Part shown: piece by piece, positions 48-1,815 of the stretch
How the letters are laid out: each line of letters opens with the position of its first letter
Numbering within the stretch: the first letter of the stretch is position 1
Virus record (IMG/VR): IMGVR_UViG_2585427969_000012
Source of the DNA: a virus
Lineage: Monodnaviria; Loebvirae; Hofneiviricota; Faserviricetes; Tubulavirales; Inoviridae
Length of the DNA: 5,541 bases
Reading direction: 5' to 3' (one strand)
The notes under the pieces: model-generated
What the model saw: only the letters and a program-made list of their open reading frames with translations
What the model was told of the DNA's origin: nothing
The model's database searches: none
Made by a program: the position numbers and the translations under genes

Positions 48-258
48 ATTCATTATTCATGGGCGATGCAATATCGCCCGTTTTACTTGAGGTTATTATG
101 GAGATTGAATTATGGAAATTGGTTCCCTTTTATGGGGGATCGTCTCAGCTTATGTCGTTATTCTTGGCTAAGAGGCTGACGGTTTATTCCTTATTTTTTC
201 CTTTCTCTGGGTTTCCTTTCCCCGATATTCATATTCATTTGTACCAGCAATTGCAGCA

Positions 259-681
259 GTGGCTGCGCGGGCTGTTATTCCTAAAGTCGTTGGCCGGGTG
301 CTTGTTCGTCGCTTTGCTGCCAATGATGCGATTTATACGGCATCACAGCTTACAGCAACCCGTGTTTTTGTTGGCCGCGCTGCGGCTAATGCTGCCGAAT
401 ACTTGCCTGCTGCCTCATCATACAAAATGAGCGGTGTTGCAACGTGGGCGGGTATTGCTGCTGCTGTATCATCTTTTGTTCCGTCTTCTTTGAGTTCATC
501 TGACGGCTCGGTAATGGTAATGACTAACGGTAAAAAGATTTCCGATAATTTATATGAAGTAACGTACAGTGGTCAAAGTGGTGAAAGTAAGACGATAACC
601 GTTAATTTTGAACCACAGGAATTAAGTCCGGTAATCCTTCATGTTAGTCGTAATAATGTGGATGCGGTTCTCCAGTTGTAG
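259..681 (+). CDS. Hypothetical protein; possibly the N-terminal segment of a fragmented pIII-like adsorption protein
   Basis: Frame-1 ORF. It has an internal Met at 427 followed by a hydrophobic, signal-peptide-like stretch (MSGVATWAGIAAAVSSFVPSSLSS) and a Ser/Thr/Gly-rich region. No Shine-Dalgarno precedes 259 or 427; the only SD-bearing starts upstream are ATG 98 (GAGG) and ATG 112 (GGAG). Frame 1 is open from 172 apart from a TAA at 169-171. Confidence 0.3.
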   Translation: MAARAVIPKVVGRVLVRRFAANDAIYTASQLTATRVFVGRAAANAAEYLPAASSYKMSGVATWAGIAAAVSSFVPSSLSSSDGSVMVMTNGKKISDNLYEVTYSGQSGESKTITVNFEPQELSPVILHVSRNNVDAVLQL

Positions 682-846
682 GTGTTGAAACAGGATATTC
701 CACGCCAGATAATGCACTTTATTATTATCAGGATTCGAAAGAGCTAATTTATTACTATGGTGATAATCCAACTGAAATTGCCAGAATTATCTTAATGACT
801 ATAACTCGCGTACTATACTGAAACACTAACGAATTTTGAACGCACT

Positions 847-1137
847 GTGACGAATAAAGTTGTCAACAGTAATGGAGATGTATCCTTTACTGAACAGAAT
901 TATAAGTTTACTTATCCTTCCTCATTTTATGAAATACCTGAGATTACACACTTGTATAGCAACCCGGCCGCATCTTCATTTCCCGCAGGTATTCCCATGT
1001 ATGAAAATGTAGCAGGGCTTCCCATGTATTACAGCGTTGCTTATTTAACAGCAGGAAAGCAATATCAGTATCACAACACGCCTTGTAAACGACTAATCAG
1101 TCAAATGGTGGATATCGACGATTTGTGCCGTTCCTGA
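847..1137 (+). CDS. Hypothetical Tyr/Thr/Asn-rich protein segment; possible receptor-binding fragment of the pIII-like protein
   Basis: Frame-1 ORF with a GTG start and no SD. Composition (YKFTYPSSFYEIPEITHLY, PMYYSVAYLTAGKQYQY) fits a beta-rich adhesin-type domain. Frame 1 is actually open from 805, and a frame-3 reading of similar composition (…GYSTPDNALYYYQDSKELIYYYGDNPTEIARI…) runs 657-818 and bridges from the upstream ORF. Confidence 0.3.
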   Translation: MTNKVVNSNGDVSFTEQNYKFTYPSSFYEIPEITHLYSNPAASSFPAGIPMYENVAGLPMYYSVAYLTAGKQYQYHNTPCKRLISQMVDIDDLCRS

Positions 1138-1308
1138 AAAAGAGGATTACACCGCAAAAGATATTGATGAAAAGAGTGAGCTTACTATCTGGACCAATAC
1201 CAAATATAAAGCCATGACGGAAGTACTGGAGGCTGGAAATATTGAGTCCATGATTGATTATCTGGAGTATCTTGATAGTGTTGTGTATCGCCAGCACTTC
1301 TTGCCGAC

Positions 1309-1815
1309 ATGATTAACGAGCTGTGGTCTGAAGCTGCCGTTAATGCCGATTATAACGGCTTACCGTTTAAAGAGGTTTCACCGGCTGAAGTAACTTCTGC
1401 GATGTCGGAACTTAGGCTATCTCCAACGTTATTAGATATGCTTTCACCTGTATCTGACAGTGCAGGGGCTGACGTCAATATTGATATTACCATTAATAAC
1501 AACTCAGGATCTGACACTGGAAATAATGGCAATATAGATTTGGGAGAAGATCCCGGTGTAAAAGAGCCTGAGCTTGAAGAAACGCCAACGGCAAGAGATA
1601 TTTTAACGCCAATTATTAATTTGTTGCCTTTTACAAACGAATTTAACATCGGCTCTCGTTCAGCATCCTGCCCCGTTGTTGAATTCAGCGTGTTTAATCA
1701 CCAGTACAGAATTGACTCCCATTGTCCGTTAATTGAGCAGAACAGAAGCGCCGTAGAAACCATATTTCTGATTATATGGGGATTTGTTGCGCTCCGTATT
1801 ATTCTGAGTGCCTAA
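1309..1815 (+). CDS. pIII-like minor coat/adsorption protein, C-terminal part: low-complexity Gly/Asn/Asp linker, two-Cys C-terminal domain and hydrophobic membrane anchor
   Basis: The linker DVNIDITINNNSGSDTGNNGNIDLGEDPG is followed by ...SCPVVEFSVFNHQYRIDSHCPLIEQ... and the hydrophobic tail TIFLIIWGFVALRIILSA*. This is the same arrangement as the Ff pIII C-terminal domain (Cys pair plus membrane anchor). The ATG overlaps the stop of an upstream frame-2 reading (ATGA at 1309-1312) and has no SD, so it may be a continuation of a frame-shifted longer gene. Confidence 0.55.
   Translation: MINELWSEAAVNADYNGLPFKEVSPAEVTSAMSELRLSPTLLDMLSPVSDSAGADVNIDITINNNSGSDTGNNGNIDLGEDPGVKEPELEETPTARDILTPIINLLPFTNEFNIGSRSASCPVVEFSVFNHQYRIDSHCPLIEQNRSAVETIFLIIWGFVALRIILSA

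Follow-up and report, generated by a model that had tools for sequence, protein, structure and literature searches.

The window analysed here, a stretch of 5,541 nt, contains between positions 112 and 1815 a region that, judged by its sequence, is a single puvA-type adsorption (pIII-equivalent) tip protein gene, an ordinary and known one. Close relatives hold it as a 570-codon ORF that begins at the Shine-Dalgarno-preceded ATG at 112 and ends with the stop codon at 1813-1815, and relative to this intact ORF the window lacks one nucleotide at each of nine sites and has a single synonymous substitution. We consider it highly probable that these deletions, like the others of the window, arose by under-calling in the consensus of a low-accuracy assembly, that is, that their origin is technical. 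In this sense, the splitting of the gene across frames is an ordinary finding, and there is probably no biology behind the pattern.

One adsorption gene in ten frame segments

When the nine bases are put back, the resulting protein is identical to P0017, a protein whose 90%-identity cluster comprises 1,474 member sequences, those of Yersinia pestis and Y. enterocolitica included, and which the sources name 'virulence factor PuvA domain protein'. Exact-match mapping recovers 564 of the 570 residues of P0017 from the frames of the window. An earlier note made from the sequence had proposed to align an intact protein across the frame switches and to compare the same prophage in related strains; we found that one 570-aa protein spans all the segments and that a single uninterrupted ORF is present in those strains. 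Full-length homologues at 89, 83, 66, 64, 37 and 36% identity are likewise one uninterrupted ORF each, and down to 36% identity they measure 570-581 aa with a conserved N-terminus. In addition, phrog_3942 matches the adsorption protein over residues 28-570 in one stretch (E = 4.5e-253), and the gene has the synteny of the puvA family, with the coat gene on its 5' side and the DUF2523/pVI, Zot/pI and secretin/pIV genes on its 3' side. The gene, its frame segments (mapped with the intact 570-aa protein) and its deletions are as follows.

112-1815, plus strand: puvA-type pIII-like adsorption protein gene, 570 codons in relatives, ten frame segments here
123-167 (frame 3), 167-190 (frame 2), 193-666 (frame 1), 666-785 (frame 3), plus strand: frame segments 2-5
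785-814 (frame 2), 814-1089 (frame 1), 1089-1115 (frame 3), 1115-1282 (frame 2), 1285-1812 (frame 1), plus strand: frame segments 6-10
120-121, plus strand: 1-nt deletion GGG>GG, frame 1 to 3
165-166, plus strand: 1-nt deletion GGG>GG, frame 3 to 2
190-191, plus strand: 1-nt deletion TTT>TT, frame 2 to 1
665-666, plus strand: 1-nt deletion GGG>GG, frame 1 to 3, the only site that recurs elsewhere
784-785, plus strand: 1-nt deletion AAA>AA, frame 3 to 2, found in 0 of 106 genomes
813-814, plus strand: 1-nt deletion TT>T, frame 2 to 1
1086-1087, plus strand: 1-nt deletion AAAA>AAA, frame 1 to 3
1114-1115, plus strand: 1-nt deletion TT>T, frame 3 to 2
1282-1283, plus strand: 1-nt deletion of a lone A (GTTAGTG>GTTGTG), frame 2 to 1
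98-178, plus strand: remnant of a small hydrophobic ORF, Shine-Dalgarno-preceded, broken by the deletions at 120 and 165

The earlier note had described up to 570 aa of protein-like reading split across five frame segments in a compensating pattern. The length agrees with the coding signal, which amounts to 570 aa, and the frame changes are real in the sequence, but the segments are ten, the first of them covering ~3 codons, read in frame 1 from the ATG at 112. The paired indels that it inferred are not there, since all nine changes are -1 deletions with no plus/minus pairs. Each deletion is a -1 step, and the frame is restored after every third one (1 to 3 to 2 to 1, three times); the C-terminus is in frame after nine such shifts, which is expected for about one total in three. 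Nor do the changes lie outside homopolymer runs, as had been stated: eight of the nine sites are contracted runs of 2-4 nt when compared with the intact sequence (GGG>GG three times, TT>T twice, and TTT>TT, AAA>AA and AAAA>AAA once each), and only that at 1282 is a lone base.

Several of its observations are borne out by the sequence. The frame-1 TAA at 169-171 is present, the ATGA overlap at 1309-1312 joins a frame-2 stop at 1310 to an ATG at 1309, and GAGG/GGAG motifs precede the ATGs at 98 and 112 while none precedes those at 259, 427, 847 and 1309. The true reading continues in frame 1 from 1285, before the ATG at 1309 is reached. As for the note's proposal of one decayed receptor-binding gene, the single gene stands, being a 570-aa ORF in relatives, but 'decayed' is probably wrong as biology.

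The nine deletions of the pIII-like region were absent from ~190 copies in ~108 complete E. coli genomes, with the single exception of that at 665, which recurs in one internal copy of strain A4 and in one 1.3-kb Logan contig (P0047); 12 fetched loci held none of the deletion alleles of the window. A 41-nt pattern across two of the private deletions had no match among GTDB genomes, IMG/VR or JGI metagenomes. By exact look-up, the only fragment protein found was a 168-aa C-terminal piece, which elsewhere arises from unrelated large deletions in loci that carry no allele of the window.

Two annotation points carry over to real genomes. One is the start of the adsorption gene, which is most likely the upstream ATG, giving 570 aa versus the 520 aa of RefSeq. 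The other is the small hydrophobic ORF, which is intact but unannotated in relatives, where its 27 codons (MEIELWKLGSLLWGIVSAYVVILGLRG) overlap the start of the pIII-like gene; in the relative L001 it lies in-frame inside 6059-6181, from the ATG at 6098. Neither Pfam nor PHROG gave a family for it, and its size, hydrophobicity and position suggest that it may possibly be a pVII/pIX-type minor coat protein.

The prophage and its site

On sequence grounds, the window holds an inovirus prophage of the CUS-1/Ypf-phi type, located at the dif site of E. coli. It is 99.6% identical to NZ_CP132022.1, in which positions 2579569-2585130 form a stretch with the intact alleles of the 18 deletion sites of the window, and other E. 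coli chromosomes were also matched. At least 80% of the window is covered in 97 genomes, with a median of 2 and up to 5 prophage places per genome, and the region fetched from strains SF-173 and A4 has its copies in tandem. Tandem arrays of 2-4 copies at dif are formed by Ypf-phi and CUS-1 (PMC4266046). In a phage collection, megablast of the window gave no match, and tblastn gave only ~33% identity over the C-terminal domain alone, in two uncultured inoviruses. An Rfam and inverted-repeat scan of the window found nothing. Besides the adsorption gene, the window contains the following features.

1-47, plus strand: 3' end of the g8p-like gene for the major coat protein (77 aa in relatives), aligning to L001:5814-6047
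1828-2115, plus strand: pVI-like minor coat protein gene (DUF2523), intact; Pfam DUF2523 at 1e-20, phrog_974
2119-3090, plus strand: pI/Zot assembly ATPase gene, with a 1-nt deletion (GGG>GG) at 3081 that changes the C-terminus
3143-4383, plus strand: pIV-type secretin gene, interrupted by the loss of 2 nt at 3905 and of 1 nt each near 4028 and 4033
4916-5095, plus strand: small attR-proximal ORF (phrog_6642, 65 aa in relatives), frameshifted by a 1-nt deletion at 5049
5252-5277, plus strand: chromosomal dif site at the attR end of the prophage, 2 nt short in the XerC arm
5460-5461, plus strand: 2-nt deletion TGTG>TG in the chromosomal flank, 183 nt past dif

The coat protein matches phrog_2186 (virion structural protein) at 4e-29 and, weakly, Pfam Phage_Coat_B. 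The Zot protein of the window has 323 aa, versus 341 without the deletion at 3081, and the secretin is one 414-aa ORF in relatives; neither the truncated Zot nor the truncated secretin products were found by exact look-up among about 15 billion proteins. Single-nucleotide deletions are also present in non-coding DNA, at 4894 and 5119.

The dif site of the window reads GG[TG]CGCATAA-TGTATA-TTATGTTAAAT, where the bracketed TG is the missing 2 nt. The canonical 28-bp dif is at the same position in 10 fetched relatives, while the window is without the canonical 28-mer, and the deleted allele was found over the full query in no complete E. coli genome. We attribute this loss to the same error process as the other deletions. 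The event at 5460 lies outside the prophage, because the homology of most relatives ends at 5277.

Spectrum of the deletions

Over the whole window, 21 nt are missing in 18 deletion events; there are 0 insertions, and of the 3 substitutions two are flank polymorphisms common to the relative L013, so that no more than one is private. In seven clean assemblies of this element we counted 89 substitutions versus 3 indel events, namely one of 15 nt and one of 6 nt, both multiples of three, and a 2-nt deletion. The ratio of indels to substitutions thus differs strongly between the window and its clean relatives (Fisher p = 5e-15), and so does the number of deletions from that of insertions within the window (sign test, p = 8e-6).

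Single-base deletions are concentrated in short mononucleotide runs: 9 of 15 fall in runs of at least 3 nt, versus a background of 17% (p = 3e-4), and 12 of 15 in runs of at least 2 nt. The rest of the spectrum consists of three lone-base deletions, two of them in a GGTG context, and three dinucleotide deletions. None of the 22 runs of at least 5 nt is affected, so that error does not rise with run length, a result that fits a per-base model (P about 0.3) but not the typical nanopore profile. G runs account for 5 of 9 deletions in runs of 3-4 nt versus 1.4 expected (p = 0.007), although the asymmetry of G versus C loses its significance once run counts are considered. As for their placing, the deletions affect the pIII-like gene, zot, the secretin gene, the small ORF, intergenic DNA, dif and the chromosomal flank. 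The pIII-like gene has a mild excess (9 observed versus 5.5 expected, p = 0.07), and a stretch of 1800 nt (1283-3080) is without any deletion (p about 0.016).

Origin of the deletions

The deletions bear the signature of an artefact because they are scattered, dif and flank included, are private to the window and come with almost no substitutions. They combine an excess of indels with a deletion-only bias, an association with mononucleotide runs and an indifference to function. The explanation that we favour, consensus under-calling, would run as follows: short mononucleotide runs would be under-called, and with single bases lost from the consensus the gene would appear split into frames. The assembly may be, for example, long-read-only, poorly polished or of low coverage. 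In long-read assemblies, the errors are mostly false deletions at homopolymers of 2-8 nt, and genes are fragmented by them (PMC12007338), and polishing with short reads often leaves errors in repeats (PMC8812927). There is also a precedent within this element, as the 'complete' assemblies of TUM14759 and A4 have most prophage genes annotated as 'frameshifted', at positions other than those of the window, and in TUM14759 the chromosomal genes that flank the prophage are annotated as intact. The sparing of long runs, the dinucleotide and lone-base events and the uneven spacing of the deletions speak against consensus under-calling. Failure of polishing in tandem repeats was considered as its specific cause and rejected; it fits TUM14759 and A4 but not the window fully, where one deletion sits in the unique flank, and for this reason only the general claim of a low-accuracy consensus is kept. 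Because the unique flank holds only one event, an error that extends over the whole assembly is no more than possible.

Among the alternatives, a genuine and very recent pseudogenisation, with the 18 deletions truly in the DNA of the organism and the prophage a dead remnant, survives best, and we regard it as unlikely. With at most one private substitution beside them, the 18 deletions depart ~200-fold from the indel-to-substitution ratio of natural copies, and not one insertion accompanies them. Prophages often decay, and this element too has natural degraded forms, but in clean assemblies decay proceeds by large deletions or fusions instead of scattered 1-nt losses, and the alleles of the window are private to it, with no inheritance by relatives. 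The mild excess of events in the adsorption gene would suit pseudogenisation, as would the untouched long homopolymers, which are atypical of nanopore error; the involvement of the XerC arm of dif and of the chromosomal flank, however, indicates a process that is not specific to the prophage.

A real, localised burst of -1/-2 frameshifts in one integrated copy and the adjacent dif and flank appears to us very improbable. It might have come about by error-prone gap-filling or translesion synthesis at the terminus/dif, or during XerCD-mediated integration of the single strand, and, if true, the prophage would now be dead and the dimer-resolution site damaged, with hardly any base substitution.

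Slightly less credible still is a mutational burst on the single-stranded or rolling-circle form, before or during integration, by an error-prone polymerase of the Pol IV/SOS type biased to -1 frameshifts. Small -1 deletions in short runs are a signature of Pol IV, and the deletion-only events in short mononucleotide runs, with the over-representation of G runs described above, are what it would leave; yet the asymmetry of G versus C is not significant given the run counts, the event at 5460 affects host flank, which never belonged to the phage genome, ~190 copies show no second case, and a phage genome of that kind could not be packaged or spread. A mismatch-repair-deficient mutator lineage was also considered. 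Mutation-accumulation spectra of such E. coli are rich in transitions, contain +1 as well as -1 changes and strongly favour long runs; the expected transitions, +1 changes and long-run preference are all missing here, and this candidate was rejected.

A functional arrangement, either the set of small translationally coupled genes that the earlier note had offered or one gene read by programmed frameshifting, is refuted by the comparison with homologues and has hardly any chance of being right: the ATGA overlap at 1309-1312 and the open stretches are its sole support, while homologues from 100% down to 36% identity are all one uninterrupted ORF with none found as separate genes, the frame junctions are private to the window, as many as nine -1 events in a row would be required, and the internal 'starts' are internal codons without ribosome-binding sites.

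Consensus under-calling, if it is the source, has practical consequences. Annotated as it is, the window would turn the adsorption protein, Zot and secretin genes into false pseudogenes and show a falsely 'mutated' dif, in a prophage that has been linked to the fitness of E. coli K1 and Yersinia pestis. Caution is also called for, as a handful of one-directional consensus errors can mimic decay with compensation or the coupling of genes; such frame patterns are resolved at once when close relatives are compared.

Comparison with known systems

The adsorption gene lies between the genes of the major coat and pVI/pI proteins, as do those of g3p of Ff phages (M13/f1/fd) and pIII(CTX)/OrfU of CTX-phi. 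The modular architecture of its product, as predicted, also resembles that of g3p and pIII(CTX). In the AlphaFold model (pLDDT 82), a hydrophobic N-terminal segment is followed by a beta-rich body (about residues 110-380), an Asn/Gly/Ser/Asp low-complexity linker with pLDDT below 50 at 466-477, and a conserved C-terminal domain that ends in a hydrophobic helix. There are 673 matching representatives; in most of the 150 listed, similarity is confined to the C-terminal ~180 residues, and the N-terminal parts are unmatched. Searches for homology to g3p gave no Pfam match for the adsorption protein or 60 relatives, nothing below E = 1 in sequence and profile searches of the PDB, and nothing at E of 0.001 or less when the model was compared by Foldseek with the PDB and BFVD. 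We describe the adsorption protein as a putative functional and positional analogue of g3p, not a demonstrated homologue.

As for the deletions, they resemble the indel errors of long-read or low-accuracy assemblies in being dominated by losses, in falling in short homopolymers, in affecting coding and non-coding DNA alike and in creating artificial pseudogenes (PMC12007338, PMC8812927). Unlike classic long-read errors, they spare the runs of at least 5 nt, and some are dinucleotide or lone-base deletions.

The closest counterparts of the prophage are the CUS-1 element with puvA of E. coli O18:K1:H7 and Ypf-phi of Yersinia pestis (morphogenesis module YPO2276-2278), for which no receptor has been identified (PMC4266046). 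It shares with them the gene order rep, single-stranded DNA-binding protein, coat, adsorption protein, DUF2523/pVI, Zot/pI and secretin/pIV, followed by two small ORFs on the attR side; like them, it integrates at dif, with a canonical dif at the 3' end in relatives (PMC4266046), and it is a multi-copy element whose copies, in the regions examined, are in tandem. With the nine bases put back, the names given by the sources, the Yersinia members of the cluster and the gene order point to no biological difference between this prophage and CUS-1/Ypf-phi.

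One adsorption gene, read in three frames

In the intact relative, the E. coli chromosome NZ_CP132022.1, the adsorption gene is one ORF of 570 codons, with its ATG at the counterpart of window position 112 and its stop at that of 1813-1815. A word-indexed search returned single full-length proteins of 570-581 aa at 100, 99, 89, 83, 66, 64, 37 and 36% identity, and phrog_3942 matches residues 28-570 of the adsorption protein in one stretch (E = 4.5e-253). An exhaustive representative search matched 673 representatives in total and added further full-length relatives at 27-34% identity; among the 150 matches listed of these 673, most cover only the C-terminal ~180 residues. 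The earlier note had left the choice between one gene and a set of small translationally coupled genes: the coupled genes are refuted by these full-length homologues and the unbroken phrog_3942 match, and the single gene is borne out by the intact ORF and the depth of the homology.

The same note had described the region as split across frames. The split is there in the sequence, but placing the intact protein on the window's three forward frames, which recovers 564 of its 570 residues, gives more fragments than the note had described.

Segments of the adsorption gene (window 112-1815, + strand)
112, opening of the gene, first few codons from the ATG, frame 1
123-167, frame 3
167-190, frame 2
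193-666, frame 1
666-785, frame 3
785-814, frame 2
814-1089, frame 1
1089-1115, frame 3
1115-1282, frame 2
1285-1812, frame 1

Several details of the note were found again in the sequence, namely the frame-1 TAA at 169-171, the ATGA overlap at 1309-1312, Shine-Dalgarno-like motifs ahead of only the ATGs at 98 and 112, and a coding signal of up to about 570 aa in total. The proposed compensating pattern does not hold: there are nine -1 shifts, always in the order 1, 3, 2, 1, with no pairs of opposite indels, and frame 1 is regained because every third -1 deletion restores it. Nor do the frame changes lie outside homopolymer runs: of the nine deletions inside the gene, eight shorten a mononucleotide run of 2-4 nt.

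Deletions throughout the window

Aligned with the intact relative, the window is without 21 bases, has no extra base and carries three substitutions. The ORF listing gives a filamentous-phage morphogenesis block made up of the DUF2523/pVI-like, Zot/pI and secretin/pIV genes. The deletions are distributed as follows.

Genes and deletions in the window
112-1815 (+), adsorption gene: nine 1-nt deletions, at 120, 165, 190, 665, 784, 813, 1086, 1114 and 1282
1828-2115, DUF2523/pVI-like gene
2119-3090, Zot/pI gene: 1 nt at 3081
3143-4383, secretin/pIV gene, split in the window: 3905 (2 nt), about 4028 and about 4033
Non-coding DNA: 4894 and 5119
Small ORF: 5049
dif core: 2 nt at 5252
Chromosomal flank, outside the prophage: 2 nt at 5460

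The deletion at 3081 removes the normal C-terminus of Zot/pI (323 aa vs 341), and its three deletions break the secretin into 3143-3925 and 4009-4383, so genes other than the adsorption gene have the frame problem too. The single substitution in that gene (1620) is synonymous, and two of the three substitutions in the window are flank polymorphisms common to strain TUM14759.

Consensus error as the probable origin

The nine private deletions account for the frame pattern of the adsorption gene and are part of a window-wide, deletion-only set, and we infer that this set most likely comes from consensus error. Five lines point in this one direction: the spectrum of the changes, their privacy, their indifference to function, precedent, and the form that natural decay takes.

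Regarding the spectrum, the window has 18 deletion events and no insertion (p = 8e-6) beside three substitutions, while seven clean assemblies of this element compared with the same reference have 89 substitutions and three indel events, of 15 nt and 6 nt (multiples of three) and a 2-nt deletion (Fisher p = 5e-15). Runs of at least 3 nt hold nine of the 15 single-base deletions, where the background is 17% (p = 3e-4). Artefacts of just this class are on record: in long-read assemblies false deletions dominate, in homopolymers of 2-8 nt and occasionally at lone bases, and fragment genes (PMC12007338).

Regarding privacy, none of the window deletion alleles was present in 12 fetched loci. Short deletion-spanning queries, covering about 108 genomes and about 190 copies, showed that those at 120/165/190, 784/813, 1086/1114 and 1282 are absent from all complete E. 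coli genomes. Deletion 665 recurs there in a single instance, an internal copy in strain A4, and its frameshift product is also on a single 1.3-kb Logan contig. The shortened products of zot and the secretin gene, both with unambiguous starts, were not found among about 15 billion public proteins.

The deletions also ignore function, reaching the host flank and dif, the host chromosome-dimer resolution site. At the right end of the prophage (5252-5277), dif is 2 nt short in the XerC-binding arm relative to the canonical 28-mer of relatives, an allele found in no complete E. coli genome. A real lesion here would leave chromosome-dimer resolution disabled, but we read it as a further case of the same error process. 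Prophages of this type restore an intact dif at their 3' end (PMC4266046).

Precedent comes from two deposited 'complete' RefSeq genomes, TUM14759 (NZ_CP128877.1) and A4 (NZ_CP028770.1), in which most prophage genes are annotated 'frameshifted' at differing positions, likely through unpolished long-read errors in repeated DNA; errors in repeats often outlast short-read polishing (PMC8812927). Three places in the former match the full window and the latter has five places; the chromosomal genes adjoining the TUM14759 prophage are annotated intact. In both strains the prophage is multi-copy, in tandem in A4, and frameshift positions are copy-specific.

In clean assemblies, the element decays naturally through large deletions and gene fusions, with no scattered 1-nt losses. 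Degraded variants were seen at L004/L005 (GCA_012903985.2) and in proteins P0048 and P0062; examples are a ~855-nt loss taking the coat gene together with 5' sequence of the adsorption gene, and an adsorption protein N-terminus fused to the pVI C-terminus.

That the deletions are genuine changes, including the small probability of a localised frameshift-mutagenesis event, is improbable given this spectrum, the private alleles, the lesions in dif and flank, and natural decay by large deletions. We keep a low probability on it because of oddities in profile and distribution. The profile of the deletion sites (among them 4028, 5049 and 5252) is atypical of current nanopore data: the window's 22 runs of at least 5 nt are all untouched, whereas the TUM14759 indels do fall in runs of that kind; three events are dinucleotide deletions; G runs are over-represented (5/9, p = 0.007); and a GGTG context is common to the dif dinucleotide deletion and two deletions of a lone G. 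Placement is uneven as well: a 1800-nt stretch (1283-3080) is deletion-free (p about 0.016 under uniform placement), outside which the window averages one deletion per roughly 210 nt, and the adsorption gene has a mild excess (p = 0.07). Local coverage or polishing differences may explain the deletion-free stretch.

Start codon and an overlapping ORF

RefSeq annotates the adsorption gene as 520 aa from an internal GTG (window 259, L001:6262 in the intact relative locus, vs window 112, L001:6112). This start is probably too far downstream, because a ribosome-binding site precedes the upstream ATG and the first 50 residues, which support the 570-aa form, are kept in aligned homologues down to 36% identity (M1, G9, Y17, S18, R22, V25, Y26). 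A Shine-Dalgarno-preceded ATG at 98 opens, in intact relatives, a 27-codon hydrophobic ORF, MEIELWKLGSLLWGIVSAYVVILGLRG (window 98-178, L001:6098-6181), which overlaps this start and is absent from the RefSeq annotation. The product of this ORF matches no family and may be a minor coat protein of the pVII/pIX type.

The intact protein and its relation to known phages

The adsorption gene, flanked by the coat gene on one side and the pVI/pI/pIV genes on the other, encodes a single polypeptide. Its C-terminal domain (about residues 390-570) is widely conserved, with near-invariant P489, C523, P524 and C541 and a hydrophobic helix at the end. A low-complexity linker of Asn/Gly/Ser/Asp connects this domain to a beta-rich body, which differs from one relative to another. 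In the AlphaFold model of the intact protein (m4be084251775), residues 19-97 form four predicted helices ahead of this body, the first strongly hydrophobic; Ff g3p, in contrast, begins with a simple cleavable signal peptide. By analogy with the Ff/CTX-phi paradigm and the puvA work (PMC4266046), the variable body would bind the host receptor and the C-terminal domain would serve as inner-membrane anchor before assembly and then as virion-end cap. Pfam, PDB sequence and profile searches, and Foldseek against PDB and BFVD gave no homology to Ff g3p, so that 'pIII-like' means a positional and functional analogue, g3p homology not being demonstrable.

By megablast, 704 of 5,426 complete E. coli genomes match the window, 97 of them over at least 80% of its length (top NZ_CP132022.1, 99.6%), with a median of two and a maximum of five places per genome with the element. 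Annotated relatives carry the whole prophage: a repressor-like HTH protein, a II/X replication protein, a ssDNA-binding protein, an 83-aa protein, a 77-aa coat protein, a long 'hypothetical protein', DUF2523, Zot, a GspD-type secretin and two small ORFs. Its boundary is the canonical dif 28-mer GGTGCGCATAATGTATATTATGTTAAAT, where the element stops. The regions fetched from strains SF-173 and A4 show the copies in tandem. The long protein carries the source-given name 'virulence factor PuvA domain protein' and shares its cluster with Yersinia pestis and Y. enterocolitica proteins. In these respects (dif, tandem copies, PuvA name, Yersinia cluster members) the prophage agrees with the published description of CUS-1 and Ypf-phi, which integrate at dif, keep an intact copy of that site at their 3' end, occur as arrays of 2-4 copies in tandem, and carry puvA, whose product is a virion protein needed for receptor binding (PMC4266046). 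The adsorption gene is an already known gene of this prophage.
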